Shown here one piece after another: positions 1 to 28,825 of a stretch of 29,005 nucleotides of DNA. The position numbers were made by a program, and so were the translations under genes. The notes under the pieces were generated by a model that saw only the letters and a program-made list of their open reading frames with translations, did no database searches and had not been told where the DNA came from. Where the stretch lies: the IMG/VR virus record IMGVR_UViG_3300027863_000649, positions 1-29,005 of that record; one strand, 5' to 3'. The stretch is from a virus. Lineage: Duplodnaviria > Caudoviricetes. Each line of letters begins with the position of its first letter. Position 1 is the stretch's first letter.

Positions 1-10
1 TATATATAAT

Positions 11-110
11 ATACCGACACGAGCTCTAGAAGCTGGGTAAGTTCTTGAGTAGCATATGTATTAACATACCGACACGAGCTCTAGAAGCTGGGTAAGTTCC
101 TGAGTAGCAT
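11..110. repeat. Two 45-bp direct repeats (period 55 bp, 1 mismatch); candidate origin or terminal repeat
   Basis: ATACCGACACGAGCTCTAGAAGCTGGGTAAGTTCYTGAGTAGCAT at 11-55 and 66-110, flanked by AT-rich linkers. Confidence 0.9.
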
Positions 111-141: not shown

Positions 142-182
142 ATTAGTATACCCTTGCGAAAGTGCACAGAATGTGTTATAAT
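142..182 (+). promoter_or_regulatory. Sigma70-type promoter P1 with extended -10 and upstream ATTAGT-N3-CCCTTG motif
   Basis: TTGCGA (154-159), 17-bp spacer, TG-n-TATAAT (177-182); lies upstream of the replication operon. Confidence 0.8.
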
Positions 183-216: not shown

Positions 217-1194
217 ATGACTGTGAAGCCCGATGCGAGATTGTGGGCTGCCGGTCCTGGTACTGGTAAGACTACTGCGTGCAGGCAACACTGCCAAGAG
301 CTCGTAAATGCTGGAAAGCGTGTTCTGGCATTGAGCTTTACTAGAGCTGCGGCGCGCAACCTTACTATGTCGGGGGTGGAGGCACGTACTGTAGATGCGT
401 TCTACTACCACCGACTTAAAGAGTTTGGGATGCTGAATAAGTTCTTCGAATGGGGCGACTTGGGGTTGTTGAAGAGGTTGTTTGTGTGTGCTTTGGAACT
501 ACCTGAATTTAGGTCTGCCGTGTCACGTTACGATGTGGTAGTGCTGGACGAAGCGCAGGATTGTGACGAGGTTATGTTCGATACGCTCTTGACGGTGTCG
601 GGTGGAAGGCTTCATGTTTTTGGCGATATTGATCAGTCGATTTATGAGTGGCGTGGCAGTGACCCAGGTCTGTTGTTGCGGTTTGCGGAGGGTGCGGAGG
701 TTACTAAGTTGTGTGTTACGTACAGGCTGACTCGTCAGGTTTTGGAGGCGAGTCAGCGGCTCATCTCTCATAATTCGGGTCGCATTCACGTGCCTCTTCG
801 GTCACTGAAGGAGGGTCCTGAGGTAGTCTTCGAGCGTACTCGTTTTGGGCGTGAAGCCGCCTTGAAACTAGCGGAATCGTATGGTTTCAAGGACGTTGCA
901 GTCCTTACACGTAATGTAGAGGGACGAAGTTGGATTGAGCGTTTTTGGGCCGCTGGGTTCGATAGGGTTCCCCGTTCGCATGTGAGTTATGCGGGTACGA
1001 TACATGGTACGAAGGGTCTAGAGTGGGAGCACGTAATTGTGGTAGACGCAGACTGGCAGGAGTTTAGGTGGGAGCGAACTGAGCGTGCGCGTCGTCTATT
1101 TTACGTCGCGATGACCCGTACTTGCTCTACGTTACACATATTTGCTATGGATCCAGTGCCATTTGTTAAGGAGGCTCTGGGAAGGGAAGTATGA
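217..1194 (+). CDS. Minimal UvrD/Rep/PcrA-like superfamily 1A helicase
   Basis: Motifs I AGPGTGKT, Ia LSFTRAAA, II LDEAQD, III GDIDQSIYEWRG, IV TYR, V TIHGTKGLEW and VI RRLFYVAMTR. Start moved to ATG 217 because the TTG at 154 is the -35 box of P1. Confidence 0.9.
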   Translation: MTVKPDARLWAAGPGTGKTTACRQHCQELVNAGKRVLALSFTRAAARNLTMSGVEARTVDAFYYHRLKEFGMLNKFFEWGDLGLLKRLFVCALELPEFRSAVSRYDVVVLDEAQDCDEVMFDTLLTVSGGRLHVFGDIDQSIYEWRGSDPGLLLRFAEGAEVTKLCVTYRLTRQVLEASQRLISHNSGRIHVPLRSLKEGPEVVFERTRFGREAALKLAESYGFKDVAVLTRNVEGRSWIERFWAAGFDRVPRSHVSYAGTIHGTKGLEWEHVIVVDADWQEFRWERTERARRLFYVAMTRTCSTLHIFAMDPVPFVKEALGREV

Positions 1195-1505
1195 GCGACG
1201 AGAGAGACTATTTTGGTGTACTTCTTGACGCCCTTCTAGAGGTTGCTCCGCCACATGCGTCGTTGCAGGTGCTTGGGCTGTTTGAGGATGACGCTGACTT
1301 GCCATACTTTATAGACGCCATGGACTACATGGTCACGGCGGTTGAGTTGGAGGAGAATGTGGACCGTGATACTGCGGCCGACTTGGTGTGGAGGAGGTTG
1401 ACGAGGAGGTTCAAGGGGAATGTGGTTTTGGCGTATCGTGAGGTCGCCAGAGCTTACAAGGTGCAATACACTTTACTTGATTACTACAGGGTTTCGCCAG
1501 AATGA
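1191..1505 (+). CDS. Hypothetical protein (104 aa, helical)
   Basis: ATGA overlaps with both flanking genes; no recognisable motif. Confidence 0.7.
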   Translation: MSDERDYFGVLLDALLEVAPPHASLQVLGLFEDDADLPYFIDAMDYMVTAVELEENVDRDTAADLVWRRLTRRFKGNVVLAYREVARAYKVQYTLLDYYRVSPE

Positions 1506-3178
1506 GGTTCGATTGGTATGTCTCACCGAAGCGCATACCAGAGGATTTTCCGACCGTGTTCAAGAGCGCATATGCGGGTAGGTCATCTGTGCGTGCGGGG
1601 GACATTAGCTTCTTGGATCTTGTGGTTTCGGATGACGGCATGGTTGAGGGAGGTCTTACGTACAAGGATCTCAGAGGGGATGTGTTCGTACGCTCCAGAC
1701 ACATAGGTGACATATGGTGTCTGTTCAGGGGCTTACCTTTGGAGAATCTAGTAGAGCTGGCTCAGAAGGGCGAGACTGTTTTGTCTGATGGCTCGCTACT
1801 GAGATACATGGGTAAGTGCGGGACGTTTCTGCTGTACGAGGGTGCGAGACGTAAGCTGACTCTTGCGCTGTACGATGCGCGGAGCTACGACGTCGACGGT
1901 GCTGAGGAGGAGGAGTTTAAGGAGTTTTTGGACAATTTTGACTGTCGTCTTACACCGCCTAGTATTGCTAAAGACATTATGTGGCGTGAGTTGCACGTAT
2001 CGCGGTATTTTGAGAGGTTTGGACTCTTTCCGACTTCGGCGCAGGTGCTCGCGTTTTTGCACGGTCATGCGTGCGGTTTCGATACTCGTATGATCGGTTT
2101 CGTCCCATCAGCTGTGAAAGTGGACCGGAAGCTTGCATATCTCAGCGCTCTCGCAGAGCTTCCATATATTGAGGGTGAGTGGGTGGAAGGGCACGAATAT
2201 ACTCCCGACGACTTGTATGGTCTCTATTGTGTAGACGTGAGGATACCCGACGACTTGGTTGCGTCTCCGTTATTCGTGCCCGTACCTGTAGAGATGCGTA
2301 CTGGTTTCGTGTTGTTTCCTTTTGTTGGTGAGATTAGTGGTGCATGGGTGTTTGAGCCCGTAATGAAGTTACTTGTGGAGATGAAGTCTAACCAGCTCTG
2401 TGACAGGTTGCGTGTGAGACAGTCGTATGCGCTTCGTAGTGGTAATGGTCCGCGTTCCTCTCCATTTAGGAACCTGGTGAGTATCGTCGGAGACCTGAGA
2501 GCTCATGCAGGCATGGGTGATTTCGCTAAACTTATTGGCACCTCCATGTGGGGTAAGTTGTTGGAGTGTTATGTGGAGCGTGGTAGCGACGGAAGTGCTG
2601 TAAATGTCGCAGGTCCTTTCTTCTGTCCTTTCTTGGCGTACACTGCTACAGATCTCATAAAGGCAGACGTCTTTAGGTTCTGGTGGAGGAGTGGTTTTAA
2701 GCTCTACTGTTCGCACGTGGACAGTGTATGGGGGCCGGAAGGAGACTGGGTAAAGTACGCAGGTGAGAGTTACCACGTAGAGCGTGTTCCTAGCACATTT
2801 TTCTTGAATGATGTGAGGTGCGTGCGGAGTGACAAGGAGGCGAGCTTGTATGAGCGGATCTGTACCAGCACGACCAATCGGTTGCTTCTGACGATTGTAG
2901 GAAGAGGAACGTATGGCGAGCTGAGGAATGTTGTGGAGAGCAACGTAGATGACCGAAAGCTTTTTGGGTTGTGCAAGGTAGCTACACTGCTTCGCATCTC
3001 GTCGAAAAGAAGGTTTGGCTATCCTCTGAGTAGGTTGCGTATGTGCGATCTCAAAAGTACGCAGTTGTTTGGGAGATTGTGGGATGGGAGTTGTATGAGC
3101 TCATTTGAGGCAAGGATATCACCCGACTTCGGTTTTCGGGGGTTTCGAGACCGTAGCGGGAGGATTTATGGCGCTTAA
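1502..3178 (+). CDS. Highly divergent family B DNA polymerase-like protein (protein-primed/primer-independent-like lineage)
   Basis: Degenerate motifs in the correct order: A 'KVDRKLAYLSAL' (cf. DxxSxYP), B 'AKLIGTSMWGKL' (cf. KxxxNSxYGK), 'PFLAYTAT' (cf. PxxAxxIT) and C 'YCSHVDSV' (cf. YxDTDS). No clear exonuclease motifs. Confidence 0.65.
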   Translation: MRFDWYVSPKRIPEDFPTVFKSAYAGRSSVRAGDISFLDLVVSDDGMVEGGLTYKDLRGDVFVRSRHIGDIWCLFRGLPLENLVELAQKGETVLSDGSLLRYMGKCGTFLLYEGARRKLTLALYDARSYDVDGAEEEEFKEFLDNFDCRLTPPSIAKDIMWRELHVSRYFERFGLFPTSAQVLAFLHGHACGFDTRMIGFVPSAVKVDRKLAYLSALAELPYIEGEWVEGHEYTPDDLYGLYCVDVRIPDDLVASPLFVPVPVEMRTGFVLFPFVGEISGAWVFEPVMKLLVEMKSNQLCDRLRVRQSYALRSGNGPRSSPFRNLVSIVGDLRAHAGMGDFAKLIGTSMWGKLLECYVERGSDGSAVNVAGPFFCPFLAYTATDLIKADVFRFWWRSGFKLYCSHVDSVWGPEGDWVKYAGESYHVERVPSTFFLNDVRCVRSDKEASLYERICTSTTNRLLLTIVGRGTYGELRNVVESNVDDRKLFGLCKVATLLRISSKRRFGYPLSRLRMCDLKSTQLFGRLWDGSCMSSFEARISPDFGFRGFRDRSGRIYGA

Positions 3179-3791
3179 GGTGTCTGAGGAGTTCAGCATA
3201 AAGATCGATCTTGCGCACTTGGGTCTTCCTTTAGATGTAAAGGAGCTTGCAGAGAAGGCCCTCGTCGAGCTTGTCGACACACCTGTCAAGATTCACAGTG
3301 ACGAAGAGGTGTCGAAGTTTATCAGTGAAGTTGTGTGTGCGTCACCCGAGTTGGTCAGACGCAATCACGTGTACGTAAGTGCGGAAGGAATGCAGTGGTT
3401 CATACGAAACTATCCCGACATACGAGTTCACTGGGTACTGGACAGGTTTTACGCGTACTACATGGGTAAGGGCCTGAAGAGGTTGGATAGCGCTGTCTCG
3501 GAGTTGGGTATGAGGGTGCACGTGTTTATGCACTTGGAGGCTGGAAAGCGTTACACACCCAGGTGTGCGAGGCGTGCGTTGCCCTATTGTGTGTATGTTC
3601 GCAGGTTCTACAGTGATCGGGCGAAACTGTGGAAGGCGAGTGCCTTACGTGACTGGTTTGACGATAACTTTTCGGCACTTACCAAGTTTTTCGAGAACAA
3701 GTTGAATACGGCGATTCTCGACCTTCGCTGCGACGATTGGGGTATGGTGAAGGTTGCAGATCTCTACGATCTCTGGAGGACGCTTGTGTAG
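3168..3791 (+). CDS. Hypothetical protein (207 aa)
   Basis: GGGAGG SD at 3158-3163 before ATG 3168; overlaps the end of the PolB-like gene. Confidence 0.7.
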   Translation: MALKVSEEFSIKIDLAHLGLPLDVKELAEKALVELVDTPVKIHSDEEVSKFISEVVCASPELVRRNHVYVSAEGMQWFIRNYPDIRVHWVLDRFYAYYMGKGLKRLDSAVSELGMRVHVFMHLEAGKRYTPRCARRALPYCVYVRRFYSDRAKLWKASALRDWFDDNFSALTKFFENKLNTAILDLRCDDWGMVKVADLYDLWRTLV

Positions 3792-3792
3792 T

Positions 3793-4050
3793 ATGGTTGA
3801 GGATCTGCTCCACAAGGTTGGTAGACCCGAAAGGCTTCGTGCAATTATGAGGATGCTTAAGGACGGCAAGAAGCCTTCTACTTTCGGGCTTCGGGCATTA
3901 TTTGGTGTGAGCGAGATGACTGTTCTGAACGACGTTAAGTACCTGAAGATGCTTGGGAAGCTGTCACCTAGTTTTCAACTGTGGCGTCAGAAGGACGCTA
4001 GTTCGATAGAGGAGCTCAAGAACTATGTCGATAGTGAAGTCTGGGATTAG
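3793..4050 (+). CDS. DeoR/HTH_11-like winged helix-turn-helix protein
   Basis: 'ERLRAIMRMLK...LRALFGVSEMTVLNDVKYL' fits the DeoR-type HTH pattern (R..I..L...LA..FgVS..TirrDl..L). Starts 1 nt after the upstream stop. Confidence 0.7.
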   Translation: MVEDLLHKVGRPERLRAIMRMLKDGKKPSTFGLRALFGVSEMTVLNDVKYLKMLGKLSPSFQLWRQKDASSIEELKNYVDSEVWD

Positions 4051-4711
4051 TTTCATAATCTACGGTGAGAGTGGCGTAGGTAAGACGCCATTCGTTGCGG
4101 AGTTGGCAACACATCCAGAGAGTTCGCCATGCTTGTTTATAGACGTGGATGGTGGACTGCTTGAGACGCGCGGCGACACTGATGTGGTGAGGGTTAACGA
4201 CTGGTCGACCTTCGTGCGTACAGTCAAGTCGCTACAGAAGTACAAGAGCGTCGTGATCGACTCGGGGACGGAGCTTGAGTACGTGTTGAGAGGTACTTTC
4301 ACGGACAACGTTCCTGAGCTTCAGGATTACTACAAGGTGCAGGAGCGCATGAAGAGGATGTACAGATTCCTTACGCGCTCGGGTCTGCTTGTGGTTGTAA
4401 CGGCGGGTGTACGTGCGGTAAACGACGAGTTGAGCGGCGCTACGAAACTCTATCCAATGTTTCAGCCTACGCTCGTTAAGGATCTCATACGTATGACGGA
4501 TGTAGTTGCTTACGTCCAGCGTACTAAAGAGGGTACGCGAAAGATGCATGTAAAGTCTGGTTTGCACATCATCGCACGTGACAGGAGTGGCGTCTTGGAG
4601 GAGTTGGATATTTCTGGGCCTAAACTGTCATGGCGGCCCATATTCGATGCTTTGACTGCAAGGGGGATACGGCCCTCTGACAATATAAGTCGTGAAGGAG
4701 GAGAAAAATGA
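4025..4711 (+). CDS. Phage AAA_24 / Sak4-like RecA-fold ATPase (single-strand annealing)
   Basis: Walker A YGESGVGKT, 'LFIDVDGG', Walker B 'SVVIDS', 'DVVAY' and C-terminal 'ARDRSG'; adjacent to a DUF669-like SSB gene. Confidence 0.8.
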   Translation: MSIVKSGISFIIYGESGVGKTPFVAELATHPESSPCLFIDVDGGLLETRGDTDVVRVNDWSTFVRTVKSLQKYKSVVIDSGTELEYVLRGTFTDNVPELQDYYKVQERMKRMYRFLTRSGLLVVVTAGVRAVNDELSGATKLYPMFQPTLVKDLIRMTDVVAYVQRTKEGTRKMHVKSGLHIIARDRSGVLEELDISGPKLSWRPIFDALTARGIRPSDNISREGGEK

Positions 4712-5115
4712 TTTCAGTAGATTTCAGTGGCGTTGAAGACCAACTAACAGCGTTACCAGTTGGAAGGTATCTAGTGAGAGTAGCGGCATGCGACTATGTT
4801 CCTGAGTCACAGAGAAGCGGTCAACCGATGTTAGCATGGACGTTCGAGGTCGTCGCTGGGCCGTACAAGGGTCGCAAGGCGTTCTTGAACACCTCACTGC
4901 AGAAGCAGTCGCTGTGGACCCTAAAGCGTGTCTTGCGCGCGCTGGGTTACGGAAGTGAGGAGCTTGCGGGCAAGGTTGACTTCGATCCGGAGTCTGCGAT
5001 CGGGCGCGAGTGTACCATCGTCGTTAGTCACGAGCGTTACGAGGACGTGGTGCGACAGCGCATTCGTCAGGTCCTGCCTGCAGACGCTTCGGAGGTCGAG
5101 AGCGAAGAGCTCTAA
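4708..5115 (+). CDS. DUF669-like phage single-stranded DNA-binding protein
   Basis: 'LPVGRYLVRV...SGQPMLAWTFEVVAGPYKGRK...IGRECTIVVSHERYE' with acidic C-terminal tail; strong SD. Confidence 0.8.
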   Translation: MISVDFSGVEDQLTALPVGRYLVRVAACDYVPESQRSGQPMLAWTFEVVAGPYKGRKAFLNTSLQKQSLWTLKRVLRALGYGSEELAGKVDFDPESAIGRECTIVVSHERYEDVVRQRIRQVLPADASEVESEEL

Positions 5116-5161: not shown

Positions 5162-5800
5162 ATGATCGCGACAGTACTATTAAGTGGTGGTCTAGATTCG
5201 GGCACCTTACTGTTTAGGTTGTTGCGTGAGGGATATACGTGCATTCCGATTACGGTGAACTATGGTCAGAAACATGCAATCAGGGAGATCGAGTCTGCGT
5301 GTAAGTTACTAGAGTTTTTGGGTGACAGGATTGAGATGCGTTCGTGGAGACTTGTGTACGTTTCGGGACTGCGTATTGGCTCTGCGCTTACGTCTCCTGA
5401 CATTTCTGTTCCCGAAGGTGAGTATGTCGGTACGCCTAGTACGTTTGTGCCGGGAAGGAACGCGTTCTTGTTGTCGCTTGCGGCGGGTGTTGCAATGTCT
5501 GAGGGCGGTTCTGTGGCGGCGATAGGCGTACATGGGCGTGACTACCCTTATCCTGATTGCTCTCCTACTTTCATACGTGCTATGGACGAGGCGGTACAGC
5601 ACGCGACGTCCGGACATGTACGCGTTTACGCGCCGTACTTGGAGTACAGCAAGGCCGAAATAGTTCGCGAGGCACTTTACTTGGGCGTTCCTCTGGACGT
5701 GACTTGGAGCTGTTACGTTGGCGGAGATAAGCCGTGCGGTAAATGTCCGACGTGCATCGAGCGCAAACGTGCTCTTATGGAGGCGGGTGTGCCATGTTAA
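5162..5800 (+). CDS. queC: 7-cyano-7-deazaguanine synthase QueC
   Basis: PP-loop SGGLDS, YGQKH..E, TFVPGRN, YPDC and Zn site 'TWSCY...PCGKCPTC'. Confidence 0.95.
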   Translation: MIATVLLSGGLDSGTLLFRLLREGYTCIPITVNYGQKHAIREIESACKLLEFLGDRIEMRSWRLVYVSGLRIGSALTSPDISVPEGEYVGTPSTFVPGRNAFLLSLAAGVAMSEGGSVAAIGVHGRDYPYPDCSPTFIRAMDEAVQHATSGHVRVYAPYLEYSKAEIVREALYLGVPLDVTWSCYVGGDKPCGKCPTCIERKRALMEAGVPC

Positions 5801-6825
5801 AGGGTTTGTTGAAGAAGCCTGTCGAGGAAGGCGTAACTGTTCCGTACTGGCGTGCTAGTGAGGCGGGTAGGTGTGAGACGTACTTGGTACGTTCTCGTTT
5901 AGGCCATGGAGCATATGTGCCTACGAGGATTCAGTACATGCTTGAGGACGGAAGGTACCACGAGCGTACAGTTTTGGCGGCTCTCAGACAGGTTGGGTGT
6001 GCACTCCGTTTCGTCTCGGATGACGACGGGCAGATAGAGGTGAAGTGCAGTGACAGTCCCAGAATAATTGGGCATCCAGACGGACTCGTGCGTATAGAGT
6101 CTACAGACGACTTCGACAGGATAGGGGCTAACTTCAGTTCGGGTGGCTGGTTGTTGTTGGAGATCACAGGCGTTAGTCCGTTCGTGTTTCAGCGCTTGCG
6201 TATGAGCGGATTAGCTGATGTGATCCCTACTAAATACGCACAGATTCAGTGCTACCTGCATTCCGAGCTTCGTAATGAGGGGGTAAATTCTTGCGTGTTC
6301 GTCGCTAAAGACAAGGCGAGTTGGAACGTGTACGAAGAAGGTGTGGGTGTCGATGACGTGTGTTTCGAGTCGGTTCGGCAGAAGCTGTACAGGTGTGAGG
6401 AGTTCTTGGGTGAGGGGATCGTTCCCGAGTATCGGTGTAGCGGGAGTGAGGCGACGTTGTGCAAGTACAGAAAGCTGTGCTTCGACGAAGTTACGTTTCC
6501 GTCTCGCACTTCGGAGACGCTTGATGTGGAATCGCTCTCAGACGAGCTGAGGGGCGAGCTCAGTAATGCGCTGAGGATGTGGAAACGCTACAAGAACATA
6601 CGAGATGAGTCTGACGAGGTCGTGGAGGAGTGTAGGGAGTACGTCTTTAACCTGCTCAGAGTTAATGGTGCGATGTCCTTGAAGTATGAGGGGGTCGTAG
6701 CGGCGATCAGGCACAGGAACAACGTGTCGATAGACCGTGAGATCCTAAAGCTCTATCCCGAGGTTTATGAGAAGGTCGTCAGGCTTTCGGAATCTGAGTA
6801 CGTAACGCTTAAGGAGGTGTTATGA
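5794..6825 (+). CDS. Cas4-like / PD-(D/E)XK exonuclease with Fe-S cysteines and C-terminal helical extension
   Basis: 'ASEAGRC', 'GRYHE', 'GHPDG', 'LLEIT', 'AQIQCY' and 'C-x7-CKYRKLC'. Start moved to ATG 5794 (GGAGG upstream). Confidence 0.75.
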   Translation: MLKGLLKKPVEEGVTVPYWRASEAGRCETYLVRSRLGHGAYVPTRIQYMLEDGRYHERTVLAALRQVGCALRFVSDDDGQIEVKCSDSPRIIGHPDGLVRIESTDDFDRIGANFSSGGWLLLEITGVSPFVFQRLRMSGLADVIPTKYAQIQCYLHSELRNEGVNSCVFVAKDKASWNVYEEGVGVDDVCFESVRQKLYRCEEFLGEGIVPEYRCSGSEATLCKYRKLCFDEVTFPSRTSETLDVESLSDELRGELSNALRMWKRYKNIRDESDEVVEECREYVFNLLRVNGAMSLKYEGVVAAIRHRNNVSIDREILKLYPEVYEKVVRLSESEYVTLKEVL

Positions 6826-7160
6826 TTATTGGCGTAGTTCGGACGTTCGATGCCGCACACAGACTTTTAGGCTATTCGGGGAAGTGTAACAGGTTACACG
6901 GACATACGTACAAGCTGATCGTGGAGATTGCGGGAGAGGTTGGTAGGGACGGAATGGTTATGGATTTCGCTACTCTCAAGGGGAGTGTAGACAAGGTCGT
7001 TAGTGATCTTGATCACTCTTACTTGAATGACGTGTTGTCTAGTGAGCCAACGTGTGAAGAGACTGTTGCGTACATCGTACGGAAACTCAGTAATCTTCCA
7101 CTGCATCGTGTCGTTTTGTACGAGACGCCTACTGCGTATGCGTTATGGGAGAGAACGTAG
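6822..7160 (+). CDS. queD: 6-carboxy-5,6,7,8-tetrahydropterin synthase QueD
   Basis: 'FDAAHRL', 'CNRLHGHTY', 'GMVMDF', 'LDHSYLN', 'PTCE' and 'LYET'. Confidence 0.95.
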   Translation: MIIGVVRTFDAAHRLLGYSGKCNRLHGHTYKLIVEIAGEVGRDGMVMDFATLKGSVDKVVSDLDHSYLNDVLSSEPTCEETVAYIVRKLSNLPLHRVVLYETPTAYALWERT

Positions 7161-7483
7161 TGCGTACAGGTAGTACGGTACGGATGCTTACAGGCTGTGG
7201 GCATCTGTACGTTACTGTAAACGTAGACGACTCAGGTAGGCCTATAGAGGTATTTGCGTACTTGGGTAAGGCGGGGTCGTGTATGCGGTGCATGCTCGAG
7301 GGCCTCACTAGAGTTGTCACACTTTCCCTTAAGCATGGTGTTCCTGTAGGTGAGGTGGTGAACCAACTTGTCGAACTGCGATGTCCACGTCCTCTGAACT
7401 TTCCTCGTGAGTTGCGTGCGACGAGTTGTGTGGATGCGGTCGCTAGAGCATTACGTGGAGGAGAGAGTAATGGGACTACTTAA
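7145..7483 (+). CDS. Stand-alone TSCPD-domain protein (like the C-terminal domain of class II ribonucleotide reductase NrdJ)
   Basis: 'TGCGHLYVTVN...PIEVF..LGKAGSC...LRC...TSCVDAVARAL'. Confidence 0.85.
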   Translation: MGENVVRTGSTVRMLTGCGHLYVTVNVDDSGRPIEVFAYLGKAGSCMRCMLEGLTRVVTLSLKHGVPVGEVVNQLVELRCPRPLNFPRELRATSCVDAVARALRGGESNGTT

Positions 7484-7769
7484 GAGGCTTGTCTACTATC
7501 CCTACTACTTCCTTTATCCATGGTGCATAGTGAGTGTGGAAGAGAGGGGGAAGTTGCCTTGGTGGAAAGTGCCTGGCTGGATGTTGTTTCATTTGGGTGT
7601 GCCTCGAAAAGGCATTACTGCGAAGGAGCTTGGTATGTACGTGCACCTACATATTGCTCCCGAGAGGCATAAGTGTGTGTGTGGCAGGTACTACTGGACA
7701 CTTAGGAAGTCGACGAAGTTTTGCGGCAGTTTTGACTGCTTCATGAAGATGCGAGAGGAGCGGAGATGA
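7470..7769 (+). CDS. Hypothetical protein with C-terminal Cys4 zinc-finger-like motif
   Basis: GGAGG SD before ATG 7470; 'CVCG...KFCGSFDC'. Confidence 0.65.
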   Translation: MGLLKRLVYYPYYFLYPWCIVSVEERGKLPWWKVPGWMLFHLGVPRKGITAKELGMYVHLHIAPERHKCVCGRYYWTLRKSTKFCGSFDCFMKMREERR

Positions 7770-8314
7770 TCGATCAGTCTAGGGTAGAGGGAATCATTCG
7801 TGAGCTTTTGATTGCGTTGGGTCAGGACCTTGAACGTGACGACTTGAAGGAGACACCTTCTCGAGTCGCCAGAATGTACATAGAACAGTGTACTGAACTA
7901 CCTTGTGAGCTTAAGGTGTTTCACGACCGTTACGACGAGCTGGTTATTGTGCGTGACATCCCGGTTACTAGTTTCTGCGCACATCACCTACTTCCATGGT
8001 TTGGGTACGCTAGCGTCGGCTACTTGCCATCGAAGAACGTTGTAGGCATAAGTAAGCTGGCACGCCTTGTACATACGTGTTGCAGGGGCTTTACGATTCA
8101 AGAGGAGGTGACTAGGAAGATTGCTGACACGCTGTACGGAGAGCTAGCGCCCAAAGGCTGTGCGGTCGTGATAAAGGCCTTTCATACGTGCATGAACTTG
8201 CGCGGTGCGAAGTGTGTAGATGCCAGCACTGTGACATCGTCTGTGCGCGGCGCCTTACGTGACGTGTCGTCGCTTCGGTATGAATTTTTGTCGCTTATAG
8301 GAGGAGAACGATGA
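7766..8314 (+). CDS. folE: GTP cyclohydrolase I FolE
   Basis: 'ETPSRVARMY', 'SFCAHHLLP', 'GISKLAR', 'IQEE' and 'HTCMNLRG'. Confidence 0.95.
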   Translation: MIDQSRVEGIIRELLIALGQDLERDDLKETPSRVARMYIEQCTELPCELKVFHDRYDELVIVRDIPVTSFCAHHLLPWFGYASVGYLPSKNVVGISKLARLVHTCCRGFTIQEEVTRKIADTLYGELAPKGCAVVIKAFHTCMNLRGAKCVDASTVTSSVRGALRDVSSLRYEFLSLIGGER

Positions 8315-9066
8315 AGGTTTCCTTGACACAGCCCATTCAGCTTTTGCGACATCCTCTTTTTGAGAGTGATTACTATCTGGTCTTGGCGCACATGGTCTTG
8401 AGAGATGCTGATTATAGTGCGTACTATTTTGAGAGGGAAGCTTTCAAAATTCTTGATAACTCAGCTGTCGAGTCGGGTGCTGAGTCTGTGAAATGGGCGA
8501 ACTTGGTATGTGCCGTCTCTATGGTGCGTCCTAACGTAGTGGTGTTGCCTGACGTTATGTTTGACGCAGAAGAGACCATGCGACGAACATTAGAGGTTCT
8601 GGACTCGCCTATGTTGAAGGTCCTCAAGAGACTCTTCAACGTGGAGCTTTTGGCGGTGGTTCAGGGTAGTACACCTGATATTTGGTTGCACTGTTTCGAG
8701 GTGTTTAACAGCGACGAGCGTATCGATTACTTGGGCGTTCCGATGCTTACTACGGAGCTGTTCGGAAGGCGGAGCAAGGCACTTAAGGCGATAGAGAAAA
8801 GTGTCCGAAAGCCGTGTCATCTTTTTGGTACGTGGTACTCAACACCTCTACGCGATGTGGTTGAGGAAGCGAAGTATGATTTCGTTATGGGTGTAGATTC
8901 ATCCAAACCTATACGTTTGGCACTTGAAGGAAGGCGTATTGACGACGACGGTGCTGTCGTAGACAAGCATGACAAGGAGTATTTCTACAGGAAATACGAC
9001 GTAGACGAGGACCTGTTGCGTTACAATTGTGAGACGTTCAGGAGGTGGTGTGGTGCTCAAAAGTGA
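8311..9066 (+). CDS. dpdA: TGT/DpdA-like TIM-barrel protein, putative DNA deazaguanine transglycosylase
   Basis: TGT-like motifs in order: 'ILDNS', 'VLPD', 'AVVQG', 'YLGVP', 'HLFG' and 'GVDSS'. Coupled to folE within the queC/queD/folE cluster. Confidence 0.65.
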   Translation: MKVSLTQPIQLLRHPLFESDYYLVLAHMVLRDADYSAYYFEREAFKILDNSAVESGAESVKWANLVCAVSMVRPNVVVLPDVMFDAEETMRRTLEVLDSPMLKVLKRLFNVELLAVVQGSTPDIWLHCFEVFNSDERIDYLGVPMLTTELFGRRSKALKAIEKSVRKPCHLFGTWYSTPLRDVVEEAKYDFVMGVDSSKPIRLALEGRRIDDDGAVVDKHDKEYFYRKYDVDEDLLRYNCETFRRWCGAQK

Positions 9067-11380
9067 GAGGTGCGTAGGGTGCCCTGCGTACAGTGCACCC
9101 GGACCAGTGCCTTCTGAACTCAACGGCGTCGTCGGTTTTGACGTGAAGGGTAGTACCGACGTAGTGTTCGTGGGCGAGGCACCTGGTAACTGGGAAGTGG
9201 CTTATGGGCGTCCTTTCGCTAACCCTACTGGTGCGGGTGGTCTGCTTCGTCAGTGTCTGGAGCAGATTGGCATACGTCGTTTTGGACTTTTGAATGTATG
9301 GAAGTGTGTATGTAAGGACGTTTTCGGTGTTCACAGTGTTTGCGCTGATGCGTTGAAGGATGAGCTCGCACGTATCAGCTGTAAGGTCGTCGTGACTCTA
9401 GGAAGTGTAGCGCTACGTGAGGTGGCTGGATTTCCAGACGTTAACGTGATGCAGGTACGCGGGAGACTGTTTAGCGTTAACGGGATGAAGGTTCTGTCAC
9501 TTCTTCACCCTGCTTTCTTGCTGAGGAGTCCTGGCTATTGGCGTGAGTGGGAGTTGGGCTTGTTGAAGTTGAAGAGGGTGTTGGAGGGCAGGAGTGACTA
9601 CATACCTACTGAGATGCGTGAGGTTACGCACTGCACGACACAAGAGTCGGCGATCAGGGCTCTAGACGTACTTGAACGTTTCTCGACGTATGCGTGTGAC
9701 GTAGAGACTGCCTCGTTTAACGCACCCTGGCAGAACGGCGAGCTGTTAACTGTGTCGATTGCGTACGCGAAGGACAAGGCTTTTGCCTTCGATGTTGGTG
9801 TGTTGAAGGGGGAGGTCTTCGAGCGCATGAAGCGTCTCTTCGAAGACACTAGTCGTACGTGGATATGGTACAACGGTATCTTCGACATACAGTTCTTTCA
9901 TGCGTTGGGCATAAACGCGCGTATTGACAGGGATGCGATGTTGGAGGCACACTTGCTGGACGAGCGTGACGCGGTGCACTCACTAAAGAGGGATTGTGCT
10001 GTGTTACTGGACCAGCGTGACTGGGAGGCCGATTTAGGAGAGCTGGACATACCCAACGACACGTCCGAGCGTGCACAGCAAATGTGGCGAGAGATTCCTC
10101 GTGAGAAGTTACTGGAGTACAATGGCCAAGACGCCATGCACACGTTTCACCTGAGCGAGCTGGTGCGTGAGCTGCTTGAGCCTTGCTGTGTGCGTTACGC
10201 CGACACTCTTCTGGCGCCGACGTACAATATGCTAGCTGACGCACGTCGAGTAGGGTTGTGTGTGGATCTGGAACGTGTTAAGCAGTTGATGGGTCGTATT
10301 CGGCCTGTTCTAGACGAGATAACAGCGCGACTCGTGGAGTACAGTGGTGACAAGTACTTTAACCCTAACAGTCACGTGCAACGTAAGGCCCTTTTGCGTA
10401 AGTGCGGTCTGAACGTGGAGGACACTAGACGAGAGACGCTGGCCAAGTACGTGGAGTCGAGTGAGGTCGTGCGTGCTCTTATGGAGTACGCCGAGGCTCA
10501 CAAGATCTTCTCTACGTACGTTGAAGGTATTGTAGACGATATTGCAAGTGACGGAAGGGTGCATCCAGACTGGAAGTTGCCTGCAGTGACCGGAAGGTTG
10601 AGGTGTAGCAATCCCAACCTTCTAGGTATACCAAGGAAGGCTGAGGTGCAGGAGCATAAGTGGAAGCGGTACGTTAAGGAGCAGTTCGTGTCTGCGCCGG
10701 GGCATCTGTTTGTGCATATAGACAGGAAGCAGTCAGAAGTGCGTTGTGCATGCTTCCTTGCTGGTGACGAGAAGCTTTCAGGGATTCTCAAGTCTGGAAG
10801 GGACCTGCATTCGGAAGTTGCGAGACTGATGTATGGCGAAGGGTTCACGAAGGAGCAACGTGTAGCCGCCAAGATGATAGTTTTCGGTCTCATCTACAAT
10901 CGCGGCGCGGGGTCGCTGTCTCAACAGATGGGTGTTACTGTTGAAGAGGCTAAAGACATGATGGACAAGTTCTTTAGTCAGATGCCTCGTTTGATGGTGT
11001 GGAGACGAGAGGTCATACGAGAGTCGAAGTCAAAAGGGTACCTGCAGTCTTACTTTGGACGCATACGTCATTTCGGACTGATTACGCGTGACAACTGTGT
11101 AACCGTAGAGAACGAGTCTGTCAACTTTCCAATTTCCGCGTTGAGCAACGAGCTCAACTTACTCTGTTGTGTCGAGACTCACAAGCGCTTCGGTAAGTAC
11201 GGTGTGCAGGTGCTTGTACCTATACATGATGCGGCACTCATACAACTGCCTGTACAAGGTCACGAAAGCCTTGTTAGTGAGATAAGTGGATTTTGGGAGA
11301 GTTATGTACCTGAGCTGTTGGGTACTGATTTACCTTTCGGGGTAGATGTTACCGTAGGCGAAAGGTGGAGCGAGCTTTAA
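9053..11380 (+). CDS. polA: Family A DNA polymerase with N-terminal family-4 uracil-DNA glycosylase-like domain and 3'-5' exonuclease
   Basis: UDG: CxxC, 'VFVGEAPG', 'GRPF', 'LHPA'. Exonuclease: 'DVET', 'NGIFD', 'YNGQD'. Polymerase: 'TGRL', motif A 'DRKQSEVR', B 'RVAAKMIVFGLIY', C 'IHDA'. AGGAGG at 9040-9045 favours GTG 9053 (9050 possible). Confidence 0.93.
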   Translation: MLKSERCVGCPAYSAPGPVPSELNGVVGFDVKGSTDVVFVGEAPGNWEVAYGRPFANPTGAGGLLRQCLEQIGIRRFGLLNVWKCVCKDVFGVHSVCADALKDELARISCKVVVTLGSVALREVAGFPDVNVMQVRGRLFSVNGMKVLSLLHPAFLLRSPGYWREWELGLLKLKRVLEGRSDYIPTEMREVTHCTTQESAIRALDVLERFSTYACDVETASFNAPWQNGELLTVSIAYAKDKAFAFDVGVLKGEVFERMKRLFEDTSRTWIWYNGIFDIQFFHALGINARIDRDAMLEAHLLDERDAVHSLKRDCAVLLDQRDWEADLGELDIPNDTSERAQQMWREIPREKLLEYNGQDAMHTFHLSELVRELLEPCCVRYADTLLAPTYNMLADARRVGLCVDLERVKQLMGRIRPVLDEITARLVEYSGDKYFNPNSHVQRKALLRKCGLNVEDTRRETLAKYVESSEVVRALMEYAEAHKIFSTYVEGIVDDIASDGRVHPDWKLPAVTGRLRCSNPNLLGIPRKAEVQEHKWKRYVKEQFVSAPGHLFVHIDRKQSEVRCACFLAGDEKLSGILKSGRDLHSEVARLMYGEGFTKEQRVAAKMIVFGLIYNRGAGSLSQQMGVTVEEAKDMMDKFFSQMPRLMVWRREVIRESKSKGYLQSYFGRIRHFGLITRDNCVTVENESVNFPISALSNELNLLCCVETHKRFGKYGVQVLVPIHDAALIQLPVQGHESLVSEISGFWESYVPELLGTDLPFGVDVTVGERWSEL

Positions 11381-11399
11381 CATCCCCAAAACACTTCAT

Positions 11400-11750: not shown

Positions 11751-11957
11751 ATGACGACAATTGTTATCAACGCCCTGATTGCAGGGCTGTTGGGCGCGAT
11801 CGCGATCGTAGTGACCCACCAGATCGTTTCGGGTGAGGACACTACGGGATGGTCGTCCGCGACCTCATCGATGTTTGCGTTGATTCCGACTGTGGTGGGG
11901 ATCGTGGTCATTGTGGGCATGTTTGTGCTGCTCACTAAGATCAGAGGCGGCGACTAG
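11751..11957 (+). CDS. Putative major capsid protein, two-hydrophobic-helix (spindle-shaped virus-like) type
   Basis: 68 aa: hydrophobic helix, polar S/T/G loop (SGEDTTGWSSATSS), 'ALIP' plus second hydrophobic helix, basic C-terminal KIR. Strong SD; followed by a stable hairpin. Confidence 0.65.
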   Translation: MTTIVINALIAGLLGAIAIVVTHQIVSGEDTTGWSSATSSMFALIPTVVGIVVIVGMFVLLTKIRGGD

Positions 11958-12008: not shown

Positions 12009-15000
12009 ATGACTGACATTGTTTATGAAGGACACACTATAACTAGTCTTCAGGAAGCTAAAGCGGCCGGACCCACAGCTTACGAGATGTATAAGGCCGC
12101 TAACGCTCCTGCGGTAACCCCCTCTGCGCCTCCTACGACTCCCCCTTCTACGACTCCCCCTTCTACGACTCCCTCTCCTACGACTCCTGCAGAGCTTATA
12201 CAAGCAGCTCGAGAGGCTGAGGCAAAAGGCCAGACAGAGGAGGCTCGAGAGCTACGTTCTCAGCTAGAAGAGGTAATGACAGCTGAGAAGGAGAAGACGT
12301 TTGGTAGGCTTCTAACTCAGAGTGCTCTTCAGGAGACCGGTGCGAAGCTTGCGGTAAGCCCCGAAACGGGTGAGGCAGCTATCTTGGAGCCTCATGTAAA
12401 GGTTCCAGAGGGCTGGGAGGTTAAGCGGGCTACTGAGGCCGAGCTACAGAAGTACGGCATGTATACAACCGCGCCTACGGGCGTGACCTACTACACGGAG
12501 TATAGGCCTTACCAGGTAGTTGACGAGTCTGGTAAGGTACTCTACACCGTAACCGAGTCTGCACAGAGATCTGGCTTGGCACCTAAGTATGAAGAGGCTC
12601 GTAAGAGCATGCAGGAAGGTCTAGTGCCTAAAGTAGAGGGCACTAGCGTGAAGTTCGTTCCCAGAGAGGAACCTAAGACACCAGTAAGCGAACCTCCTAA
12701 ACAGGTGAGCTCTAGTATGTTTAGTCTTGACCCTGAGAAGGTCAAGACGTACTTGAGCGATGAGCTTGAGCGCTATCGTCGTAGTGACGGAAGCTACGAC
12801 GTTCGTAAGTATATCGAAGACGTCGAGTCCGGTAAAGGACCTAAACACCTCACTATTTCCGCTATTACTGCTGTCGTTCCTTACGATCAGGTAATGACAG
12901 TCTGGAATGACATGCATACGGCCGATCCCGCCTCAGGGTTGTACTATCGAAAGGCCGATCTCTTCCAGAATTGGGGAGAGCGTCTACCGGACGGCTCCTA
13001 TACAGGCAAGATCCTTTGGGACAAGTTCCATAGGGATCTAGGAGCGTCTATGGCTTGGGAGCAGGTGCTTAAGTCTGGTAGTGTTGACCTGGAGGAGATC
13101 AAGAAGGTTGGAGGTTTTACAGGCGTAGAGGCCGCTCAGGATGTACTTGAGCAGTTCAAGAGTCTTCCCGAAAAAGATCAGAGGTACATACAACAATACG
13201 GCCTTCATGCCTATATAGACAAGCTCGAGCTCGACGAACGCCAGCGTAAGGACGCCGAAGCAGTCATCAGAATGTTTGACAAGGAGGGCGATCCTGTTAA
13301 GTTTGCGGTGCTGGCTACTCAGGCTAAAGGCGTAAAGGCTACTGAGAAGGGTGTTTTTGAGGTCCTTGTAGCGGCTGGCTATTCGGCCAAGGACGCCGCA
13401 CAGATCGTGAAGATAGCTCGCGATACGCCTCGTTACATGATTAAGCCTGAAGGCTTCGCAGAGGGTGTTGCCAAGTCGGCCGCAGAACTGATGCAGAAGA
13501 CTACCGAGGCCATAGACAAGGTAGCTGGTAAGCTAGCTGAAGGCGCTATAGCGCCTGTAGCTTTTACTCCTGGGGCTAAAACTTCAGAGAAGGTAGTGAA
13601 GGGTCTCATTAAGGGTGGTATAGACTTCTTCACTGTACCTGTAACCGCAGTCGAGACCCTTACAGTCGCTGGAGCACAAGCGTTTGCTAAAGACTATCTT
13701 GGTGCTCTTGAGACCTTCGGATCTCTCGCACCAGTTACGTACATACACAAGGCTGGCAAGGGAGAGTTTATTGGCTTCGGACCAGCGGCCTTGAAGGCGA
13801 TCGAGCAAGACCCTTACGTAGCGGTGCCCGAAAACATCGTACTGTTCGCACCTATCGTTGCTAAAGGTGTCACGAGCGCTATCAGTACCGTAAAGGGTAC
13901 GAAAGCCATCCTGAGTCCTCACGAAATCCATCCCAAGACAGTAACGATAGAGATGTCGGTACCCTCGGCGGTGATACCCGACGGAATGGTGGAGCTCGCT
14001 GCTCGGCAGAAGGTTGAGTCTGCTATCTTGAAGACGCTAACTGGTGGGACCGACTTCGAGGCTACAGCCGCTAAAGCCTTGCGTTCGGTCAGTGACGCGA
14101 TCGAGCAGGCCCATAAGTTCGGTCACGACGTAGTGATAAAGGACGCTGAAGGCAAGGTCGCTTTCAGGCTAACTCCCGCAAACAGGTTTGAGCCCACACT
14201 TCTGTACAAGGTCGTGCCAGACGCTACGTTCGTGCAGGATGCTGTCGAGGCTGGCATGCCTGTAGAGGTAAAAGGTAGAAGCGGTATTGCTTTCTGGTCA
14301 CTTCACGCCCCACTCAGTTTCGTGTCGATATTTGAGTCTCCTACGGATCCTGCCGTTCTAGCGACTAGAGTTACGTGGAAGGACATCAAGCCTCTTCCAC
14401 GTGACGTCATAAACCAGCCAACCTTGAGTGCCATGTACCGCAAGATGATGGAGATGGTACAAGAGGGTAAGCTCGAGAAGGGCTTCTATCCAGTGTTCAA
14501 GCGTTGGCAGGACAAGATTGAGCTGGAACTGGTGTCTACGGAAAACTTTCCGCTTCAGCCTGTAAGGCCTACGTGGTACACACAACCTTTCCGTAGAGGC
14601 GTCGCCACGGATATCGACCTAAACAGCATGTTGAAGCAACTCAAGGACGACAAGCACATCGTCTTCGACCTGGACTACACTCTCGTAGATGGTAATGGAC
14701 GCCCTTACCGCGGAGCCAAACAGCTTATAGAGGAGCTACGGAAACAGGGTAAGGAAGTAAGTCTGTGGACGCATTCCGAGAGAGCTCGCGCTGAGGGGCT
14801 CCTACGCAACATGGGTCTGGATCCCTCAGTGTTTAAGAACTTCATAACTCGAGAAGACTACGAGCCTACTGGACTTCACCCGTACGCTTACAAGGACATC
14901 AGCAAGATTGGTGGCGACAGGCTCGTAGACGATAGCAAGGTACAGAAGAGTCTTCAAGGCGGGAAGCAGTTGTACCCTAAGTTGATGAAAGTAGAGACGC

Positions 15001-22793: not shown

Positions 22794-23549
22794 ATGACAC
22801 TTCCACGTCTCGAGGACTTGAATGTCGAGGATCTCGAGTTTCTGGCTTCCGTAGTAGCGGCGCGTAAGGAAGCCGAGAATGACGACGCTATCGCACAGCT
22901 TATTGAGAAATGCATCATCATCGAAGGTAAGAAGGGAAGAGGTAAGACGCTGAGTGCTGTAGCGTTGTGCTATCAGATGCGCGAGCGATTCGGCAGACAC
23001 ATAATTGCTGTCGGCTCTAAAATGGGTCTGAAGAAGGAAACCTTCGGAGAGTTTCAGGAGCTGACTATACAGCAATTCAGGGACGCTCTGGTAGCGATCT
23101 CGGAAGTGTCCTCTATTGCGGGAGGCGAAGCCAATCCTGAGGTAGTCCAGAAGTTGTTACTAGAGCGTGGCGTCGATGTACTGTACGCCACTATTGTGTT
23201 TGACGAGTCATATCAGTTGTTTGACTGCCGTACACCCTCCGACAAGCTGGTGAGGGCATTCGGGTACTTCGGAGCACAACAGAGGCACTACCACTGCACC
23301 ACTATACTGCTAACACCTGACATAAACATGTTGGACAGACGCATCAGGAGACAGGTAGACTGGATCGGAAACTGTTTCCATAACGCCGCAACGAGTAACG
23401 TTACTCTGAGGCTCTCGTCAGGTCTAGACACTCTTACAATCAGGTTCAACGGAGCAGACGACTCACTGCATCCGGCATACTACGACATGTACAACACTCA
23501 TGCGCTTGTAGGCTACCGTACGACGCACTTGGATGTGAAACACTACTAA
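22794..23549 (+). CDS. Zot / filamentous-phage pI-like morphogenesis ATPase
   Basis: Walker A 'IIIEGKKGRGKT', Walker B 'IVFDES' and Zot-like signature 'QQRHYHCTTILLTPDINMLDRRIRRQVD' (cf. xRH.g.di.l.tQ....lD..iR). Confidence 0.8.
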   Translation: MTLPRLEDLNVEDLEFLASVVAARKEAENDDAIAQLIEKCIIIEGKKGRGKTLSAVALCYQMRERFGRHIIAVGSKMGLKKETFGEFQELTIQQFRDALVAISEVSSIAGGEANPEVVQKLLLERGVDVLYATIVFDESYQLFDCRTPSDKLVRAFGYFGAQQRHYHCTTILLTPDINMLDRRIRRQVDWIGNCFHNAATSNVTLRLSSGLDTLTIRFNGADDSLHPAYYDMYNTHALVGYRTTHLDVKHY

Positions 23550-26665: not shown

Positions 26666-26702
26666 CTGCATACGTCGCGTTCGACCGTCTCAAAGGGTTC
26701 AT

Positions 26703-26743
26703 ATTAGTCTGCCCTTGAAAAGCAATCCATATTGTGTTATAAT
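26703..26743 (+). promoter_or_regulatory. Near-consensus sigma70-type promoter P3 with ATTAGT-N3-CCCTTG motif
   Basis: TTGAAA (26715-26720), 17-bp spacer, TG-n-TATAAT (26738-26743). Confidence 0.85.
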
Positions 26744-26786
26744 AAAATTAAGAACATGAAGAATGCAGTATGAAAGGAGGAACACA

Positions 26787-27970: not shown

Positions 27971-28825
27971 ATGGAGCTTGAACCCATGAAGGCAGTCTCG
28001 GGTGACGTCACTACGCTAGAACGCCTCTCGGACGACCCACGATGGGTAGCTGGCGAGAAGTTCGACGGCTATCGTGAGCTGTTCTACATTGGCTGCAATG
28101 GCAGTGGCAACGACTTACGATCGTCTCTTGGTACTTCACACATTTCCGGCGTCCCTCAGTTCCAGATTCCTGTGCCAGAGCTTAAAGGAACAATCTTCGA
28201 CTGTGAGGGAATGGCGCCTACTCGTAGACTAGAGGATAACGCAACCTGCTTCAAGTCGTGTCCAAGCACCTCTATCCAATGGCAGCAGGAGCATGGGTGG
28301 GCGTCTCTAGTCATTTTTGATCTTCTCGTGTATAAGGGAGAGGTAGTAGTCTCGTTACCCTTCCGGGAGCGTCGGAAACTTCTACGTGAGGCTTTCGACG
28401 TTCTGCTGCGTCGAATAGAGCACTGTCGTCTAGAAACTCTTATAAGTGGTGGAAAGCTTTCGTACTGGAGACATGTGGTGGAATGTGGCGGTGAGGGAGT
28501 GATCTTGAAGGACCTTGACGCACCTTATGCGCCCGGAAAGCGGAGCGGTGCGTGGGTAAAGGTAAAGCGTATGCTTCGTCTTCAGTATGAGATCATGGGT
28601 TTCATGCCTGGCACTGGCAAGTATGAGGGCCTTATAGGTTCCGTGCTCTACGGTAGAGACGGAGCGGTATTGGGGTCAGCCAGTGGGATGGCTGACGAGG
28701 TACGGATAGCCATGACAAGGCACCCCGAGTGGTATGTAGGTAAGATGGCCTGGTTCGAGTGTCAATCACTTACAGACAGAGGCGTCATGAGACATCCACG
28801 TTACAAGGAGTTGGCAAATGATTAG
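27971..28825 (+). CDS. ATP-dependent DNA ligase (minimal adenylation plus OB-fold domains)
   Basis: Motif I 'EKFDGYR', III 'IFDCE', IIIa 'IFDLL', IV 'EGVILK', V 'WVKVK' and C-terminal 'GVMRHPRY'. Confidence 0.92.
   Translation: MELEPMKAVSGDVTTLERLSDDPRWVAGEKFDGYRELFYIGCNGSGNDLRSSLGTSHISGVPQFQIPVPELKGTIFDCEGMAPTRRLEDNATCFKSCPSTSIQWQQEHGWASLVIFDLLVYKGEVVVSLPFRERRKLLREAFDVLLRRIEHCRLETLISGGKLSYWRHVVECGGEGVILKDLDAPYAPGKRSGAWVKVKRMLRLQYEIMGFMPGTGKYEGLIGSVLYGRDGAVLGSASGMADEVRIAMTRHPEWYVGKMAWFECQSLTDRGVMRHPRYKELAND

Follow-up and report, generated by a model that had tools for sequence, protein, structure and literature searches.

The open reading frame (ORF) at positions 1502-3178 encodes a trimmed family B DNA polymerase (PolB) of the phi29 type, the protein-primed class, an assignment confirmed by profile comparison and by a structural model. 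On balance we favour the reading that this enzyme initiates replication by protein priming and then passes the work to the PolA encoded downstream, its binding and activity being predicted. The stretch of DNA analysed (the window) is the whole 29,005-nt record, which is classed as linear and has a CheckV completeness of 23%. Because the window is a fragment, the absence of a gene from it alone proves little. The features discussed are collected in Table 1.

Table 1. Positions of the features discussed, in window coordinates
Feature	Position	Strand	Remarks
49-nt repeat, two copies with 55 nt between them	7..110		At contig start
Sigma70-type promoter-like site, TTGCGA-17-TATAAT, TG before -10	154..182	+	Heads the operon
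UvrD-like SF1 helicase	217..1194	+	First gene of the operon; Pfam UvrD E 1.7e-18
104-aa ORF ending YYRVSPE	1191..1505	+	Overlaps PolB start; candidate miniature terminal protein
Trimmed phi29-type PolB, 558 aa	1502..3178	+	Motifs, fold, profile comparison
207-aa ORF after PolB	3168..3791	+	Resembles the ~205-aa partner of relatives by location and length alone
Sak4-like annealing ATPase and DUF669 SSB	4025..5115	+	Downstream of PolB module, conserved
QueC, QueD, FolE and 251-aa ORF	5162-9066	+	251-aa ORF kept just before PolA in relatives
Stand-alone TSCPD domain	7145-7483	+	In relatives, TSCPD is part of a complete ribonucleotide reductase of ~690 aa
UDG-3'-5' exonuclease-PolA fusion	9029..11380	+	Domain matches; polymerase motifs intact
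68-aa hydrophobic hairpin, likely major capsid protein	11751..11957	+	Pfam His1_capsid E 0.0075, under cut-off
1626-aa protein after capsid gene: HAD, NUDIX, proline-rich repeats	12009-16889	+	
Zot-like ATPase	22794-23549	+	
Repeat protein, units of ~24 residues	25382-25927	+	
ATP-dependent DNA ligase	27971..28825	+	

Identification and anatomy of PolB

As a single protein, the window PolB had no match in Pfam, PHROGs, PDB sequences or a phage tblastn search, and word-based homologue searches, with the protein alone or with an alignment, returned only itself. The PF03175 cut-off was not reached: there was no match for the window PolB and 6 of the 25 rows of the family alignment matched weakly (best E 0.0019). 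A PDB sequence search with the family profiles gave chance matches only. An exhaustive phmmer search recovered 13 relatives with 25-31% identity, among them P0011, a clear PF03175 protein, and in the ESM Atlas the window PolB is placed among PF03175-like clusters (TM 0.66-0.69). When the family alignment was compared, profile against profile (hhalign type), with six protein-primed PolBs (those of phi29, His1, His2, Toil and Badulia, and P0011), the match had P 99.3% and E 1.3e-20; the family profile matched Badulia with E 3.7e-20 and His1 with E 3.4e-16.

The structural model, built from the 25-row alignment (pLDDT 77.7, pTM 0.83), has phi29 polymerase as its best structural match (Z 20.6, 431 residues, rmsd 5.0; Foldseek E 2.3e-11), whereas other PolBs reach Z 10.5 or lower. 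It has the PolB palm and fingers fold, with the Asp residues of motifs A and C present. The first-pass annotation had read the ORF as a second, degenerate family B polymerase beside PolA, and the phi29-like fold, together with the intact motifs of the PolA, bears this out.

Motifs A (KVD208RKLAY213L), B (K343LIGTSMW350GK) and C (S404HVD407S) are also where that annotation had put them. K343, W350, G351, P376 and D407 are invariant in 25/25 alignment rows, and each of the 23 rows spanning motif A has D208 and, five places later, an aromatic residue (Y213), so that the two essential Asp residues, D208 and D407, are retained across the family rows covering each motif, as had been proposed. We take the aromatic residue to correspond to the ribonucleotide steric gate of phi29 polymerase, and its conservation suggests that the product of PolB is likely to be DNA. 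The alterations described earlier, in the first Asp of motif C, the Asn and Tyr of motif B and the exonuclease motifs, are all seen in the alignment. Throughout the family, motif C lacks its first Asp and has the pattern ExxD; in the window PolB the Glu of this pattern is lost as well (S404 instead). No KxY motif, placed by eye, was seen after motif C in the window PolB. The N-domain is exonuclease-like with motifs I and III missing: in the family alignment Exo I lacks a conserved DxE and Exo III of phi29 faces a gap, while an Exo II-like Asp is present in most relatives and ambiguous in the window PolB. The residues for synthesis are thus intact and the proofreading motifs missing, and the enzyme is predicted to be catalytically active.

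The spacing between motifs A and B is 135 residues in comparison with 134 in phi29 (130-137 in His1, Toil, Badulia and P0011), suggesting that TPR1 is of full size. It lies at about residues 217-322, where the alignment is continuous and the model confident. TPR1 is described as the part that binds the terminal protein (PMC5695915, PMC4889955). The TPR2 hairpin is present and short (residues 356-370); G351 to P376 spans 25 residues versus 37 in phi29, which makes TPR2 about 12 residues shorter. TPR2 confers processivity, and the window PolB would be expected to have low processivity.

The annotation had also pointed to the primer-independent PolBs of pipolins (piPolBs), and this likeness stands for the missing first Asp of motif C and is not supported for the rest. 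A piPolB-like enzyme would be a DNA primase that works de novo and supplies PolA with primers, no terminal protein being involved. According to PMC5695915 the second motif C Asp suffices in piPolB. TPR1 and TPR2 also occur in piPolB, no other primase was found and genes for an SSB, a helicase and a ligase are nearby. However, neither SxTTDG nor KH-x8-KTRG was found (pattern search of the window, L013 and G003 proteins; alignment), a conserved exonuclease is lacking, the family profile matches true protein-primed enzymes, and the inverted-repeat ends and the small conserved Ser-Pro protein described below are left unexplained. We consider such a primase improbable.

The same annotation had offered, as a second option, a decaying ancestral replicase displaced by an acquired PolA. 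The values of dN/dS, computed from relatives with the window copy outside the pairs, are low in all 6 pairs (0.044-0.234), one pair being nearly identical and several near saturation. The window PolB keeps 26 of the 38 family-conserved columns (those shared by at least 90% of 20 full-length relatives), compared with 76 of 382 variable columns, and its ORF is intact. Decay is therefore not borne out. A catalytically dead relic, retained at best as a scaffold for binding DNA or protein, would fit the long branch of the window sequence, the 12 changed columns and the three altered motifs, but the Asp pair, the Lys and the steric gate are kept family-wide and selection is evident in the relatives; we regard it as very unlikely.

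The family is diverse, with pairwise identity down to about 20%. In a quick tree with long branches and no piPolB sequence in it, 18 rows of the family group in a single clade (SH-aLRT 98); the window PolB has diverged most (end branch 2.12) and is sister to P0002-P0008. The tree does not join the family specifically to His1 and, given its quick construction and long branches, no donor or order of events is drawn from it. Viral scans with the window PolB, the window PolA and an alignment returned no loci, so this nearest clade is without genomic context here, and a scan of genome contigs with a further alignment had no matches, so no host or provirus was found.

Gene layout and co-occurrence with PolA

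The record is present in two hot-spring metagenome runs, with no RNA run listed among those containing it. A run contig overruns its right end by at least 547 nt, and the polymerase ORF is covered by contigs of the two runs combined with no listed difference; in the other assembly of this PolB (P0001) the first 17 residues differ. A joining of the right end of the window to its left end was considered and rejected: the read layouts, each spanning part of the window only, contain no joint. The repeats at the contig start have about double depth, with loose letters before 59 and behind 101 in the run contigs, and possibly lie near a genome end or origin. Adjoining them, contig depth falls to ~3-4 at 218-591 in comparison with 7-12 elsewhere, a drop which may mark a nearby genome end.

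The annotated genes of the window are on the + strand, in the order UvrD-like helicase, 104-aa ORF, PolB, 207-aa ORF, HTH, Sak4, SSB, QueC/QueD/FolE, Cas4-like nuclease, UDG-PolA, hydrophobic hairpin, membrane proteins, Zot-like ATPase and ligase. The promoter motif that heads the operon is found again near 11395, 26697 (26697-26754) and 27366; a generic promoter scan gave no enrichment (6 found, 9.0 expected). QueC, QueD and FolE with the 251-aa ORF are likely to form a 7-deazaguanine DNA modification set, in which the 251-aa ORF, which matches no named family, would at a guess be the transglycosylase. At the place of the 1626-aa protein, G001 and G003 have equally large, dissimilar proteins, and run contigs carry a second copy of the 24-residue repeat protein ~430 nt past the right end of the window.

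Scans found 2 viral loci and 9 metagenome loci with PolB, and two more viral records were reached via the ATPase and PolA. A PolB-like gene, PolA and the capsid hairpin occur together in all four long records (G001, G002, G003 and G005; G004, at 4.8 kb, is too short to be counted), and in each the hairpin gene comes right after PolA. The other 77 of 80 PolA loci have neither a PolB-like gene nor a capsid hairpin in their flanks, and PolB is absent from 4/4 other PolA records searched whole. The module in the relatives consists of an ~85-aa ORF, an ~100-aa ORF, PolB, an ~205-aa ORF, Sak4 and SSB. The UvrD-like helicase gene, which in the window lies directly upstream of the 104-aa ORF, has a homologue adjoining PolB in L012 and L013 only, inserted in the module, and in L009 a fragment homologous to the window ligase lies just upstream of the module. 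The ~85-aa ORF (L013:1532-1783) is basic, conserved and precedes the ~100-aa ORF in 7 relative loci; no counterpart was detected in the window.

The ~205-aa partner is conserved in the relatives (dN/dS 0.11-0.16) and is an alternative candidate for a terminal protein. The 207-aa ORF of the window showed no clear similarity to it (HMM E 0.81; BLAST E 0.05 and 1.2), and its product is possibly an accessory protein. A PHROGs search with 8 candidate partner proteins gave weak matches to unknown families only.

The window PolA carries an N-terminal uracil-DNA glycosylase (UDG) before its exonuclease and polymerase domains and lacks a 5'-3' nuclease; the same fusion is present in G003. Between G003 and G005, PolA is better conserved than PolB (83% versus 62% identity; dN/dS 0.105 versus 0.234). 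This fusion is likely to be the elongating replicase. The reverse arrangement, in which PolB has remained the main protein-primed replicase while UDG-PolA serves in repair or copes with the modified bases of the 7-deazaguanine pathway, would fit the intact synthesis residues of PolB and the selection on them, as well as the position of PolA among nucleotide-modification genes. Yet PolB would then have to copy an ~80-kb genome with no proofreading motifs, no KxY and a short TPR2, and the better conservation of PolA also argues against it. We think there is little chance that it is correct.

The 68-aa hairpin probably represents a major capsid protein of the spindle-virus type and would mark the virus group, although the match is weak: Pfam matches the His1 capsid in two of five members, under the cut-off, and hhalign gives P 14%. 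The hairpin is single in the window and G001 and tandemly duplicated in G002, G003 and G005 (L025:7039-7488, L008:3369-3870 and L029:12662-13120). The window has sigma70-type promoter motifs and AGGAGG ribosome sites, and G003 encodes two Sigma70_r4 proteins. Taken together, the weak capsid match, the Zot-like ATPase and the sigma70 signals suggest a spindle-type virus of a bacterium. If true, this would go against the description of the spindle shape, as of 2014, as unique to archaeal viruses (PMC4284463).

Terminal-protein candidate and genome ends

The ~100-aa ORF upstream of PolB ends in Ser-Pro in 8/8 relatives, even where it sits about 1.4 kb from PolB. Among 277 distinct called ORFs an SP or SPx ending was found in seven, all of them this upstream gene, and in an unrelated background it occurs in 5 of 557 frames. 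The end of the window ORF, YYRVSPE, is in register with the YYLASP of L009, L012 and L013. This C-terminal motif is the sole part common to the two (z -0.4): no whole-length similarity between the window ORF and that of the relatives was detected by HMM, hhalign or BLAST, and the relatives' ORF has a basic N-half and an acidic C-half, like the phi29 terminal protein, while the charge pattern of the window ORF is the opposite. The earlier suggestion to test the product of this ORF as a terminal protein is well backed by the shared Ser-Pro end; the other two comparisons speak against it. We regard the upstream ORF as a candidate for a terminal protein of miniature size; in the window, its priming residue is predicted to be Ser102.

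A similar gene is present in His1. ORF11 (L111:1879-2196; 105 aa) lies directly upstream of the His1 polymerase and ends in YGSP. Against the upstream-ORF family it scored above all 557 background frames, with a weak likeness (z 2.0; 9/300 shuffles; HMM E 0.23). His2 ORF15, Toil gp08, Badulia gp8 and the upstream ORF of MetSV have no Ser-Pro ending. The parts of the literature searched name no terminal protein for His1, and the Ser-Pro signature offers ORF11 as a candidate.

The window's own genome ends lie beyond the record, and linear ends are expected for its virus from the pattern in G003, the one record with a terminal-repeat signature. In G003 (78,758 nt) the final 116 nt exactly match the reverse complement of 1623-1738 and the genes at the right end face inward. 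This is as expected if an assembler had collapsed an inverted terminal repeat of ~1.7 kb; an internal repeat or a misassembly could also give it. Points against are the CheckV completeness of 55% for G003, the distance of 12.7 kb between PolB and the left end of that record, and the IMG/VR classification of G001 as a provirus.

No six-frame match to DnaG_N, Prim-Pol, DNA_primase_S or DnaB_C was found in 5/5 records, with positive controls, in agreement with the earlier statement that the window shows no DnaG, AEP primase or DnaB-like helicase; the window nonetheless encodes the UvrD-like SF1 helicase. Pfam searches of 77 of the 106 called ORFs of G003 identified PolA and an SNF2-type helicase, the only helicase of that record, and no primase. 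A diverged primase could escape these searches.

These results bear on a further explanation, in which PolA or host enzymes with the host primase copy most of the genome from an internal origin and PolB with the terminal protein serves only to fill single-stranded gaps at the ends, as Tap and Tpg do in Streptomyces. The anatomy of PolB would be the same as in an initiator, the window has a ligase, the genome of ~80 kb exceeds the <50 kb given for protein-primed viruses and replicons (PMC4889955), and Tap is reported to make a 13-nt protein-linked primer (PMC4513846). Against this, no viral primase or DnaB-type helicase was found, although among polymerase-encoding viruses a primase is present in 98% and a helicase in 100% according to PMC4889955, and there is no ligase among the examined ORFs of G003. 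We consider end patching unlikely; both it and the initiator reading make PolB a specialist in protein priming.

In the preferred reading, PolB would act at the ends of a genome that is likely linear: it would bind the small upstream protein via TPR1 and link the first nucleotides to the serine near the C-terminal end of that protein. After extension by a few bases, the short primer would be passed to PolA, which would continue by strand displacement, assisted by the helicase, SSB and Sak4, with the UvrD-like helicase unwinding the DNA. The first-pass annotation had suggested such a hand-over, and we infer it from the full-size TPR1, the short TPR2, the lost proofreading motifs, the strict co-occurrence with PolA, the inverted-repeat ends of the longest relative and the absence of a detected primase. 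As the terminal Ser-Pro is conserved, there is one residue to mutate and the claim is directly testable. More tentatively, these may be linear viruses with large genomes (~80 kb), infecting bacteria and yet probably spindle-shaped, that split protein-primed replication between PolB, as a 'protein primase' acting on a terminal protein of ~100 residues with a C-terminal priming serine, and PolA, which copies; the size limit of ~50 kb would thereby be lifted, and the Ser-Pro signature would point to ORF11 as the His1 terminal protein.

Comparison with known systems

Among the closest parallels is phi29 polymerase with its terminal protein (PDB 2PYJ, 1XHX, 2EX3; PF03175), which shares the fold, the Asp pair, the motif B Lys, the steric-gate aromatic, the full-size TPR1 and the small gene directly upstream. 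The window PolB differs in having no Exo I or Exo III, SHVDS in place of YxDTDS (ExxD in the family), Thr and Trp for the Asn and Tyr of motif B and a shorter TPR2. Additionally, the phi29 terminal protein has 266 aa in comparison with ~100 aa for the candidate primer protein, and here a second polymerase is present and the genome is about four times larger. His1 (Halspiviridae, Salterprovirus) shares the PolB profile match and the Ser-Pro ending of ORF11, and probably also a linear genome with terminal repeats and a small hydrophobic capsid hairpin, but it is archaeal, has 14.5 kb and encodes one 717-aa polymerase annotated with a 3'-5' exonuclease.

To our knowledge, Tap of Streptomyces is not known as a PolB. 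In the description of Tap-Tpg in PMC4513846, the short protein-linked primer comes from a dedicated enzyme and is extended by a different polymerase, polymerase I being named. In Streptomyces the host replisome copies the bulk of the DNA, starting at an internal origin. The piPolB of pipolins has the TPR1/TPR2 fold and the loss of the first motif C Asp in common with the window PolB; as described in PMC5695915 it has an active exonuclease, SxTTDG and KH-x8-KTRG, none of which was found in the window PolB, and the window is from a virus with PolA. The divPolA1/divPolA2 tailed phages also have two polymerases, an exonuclease-dead, trimmed second enzyme beside a regular one (PMC11348598). In those phages, which are Caudoviricetes, the extra enzyme is a PolA, whereas here it is a PolB of the protein-primed type, and the virus has a candidate capsid protein of the spindle type. 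The large spindle-shaped viruses of ANME-1 are described as using an RNA-primed PolB, and Wyrdviruses as carrying pPolB (PMC9894754).

In the mainly open-access literature searched, we came across no virus described as pairing a protein-primed PolB with PolA; the division of labour proposed here, if true, would be one for which no viral account was found. Protein-primed replicons are described as needing no helicase (PMC4889955). A trimmed protein-primed PolB together with PolA and no primase would, if the reading is correct, add a third kind of arrangement and indicate how protein priming can be scaled up.
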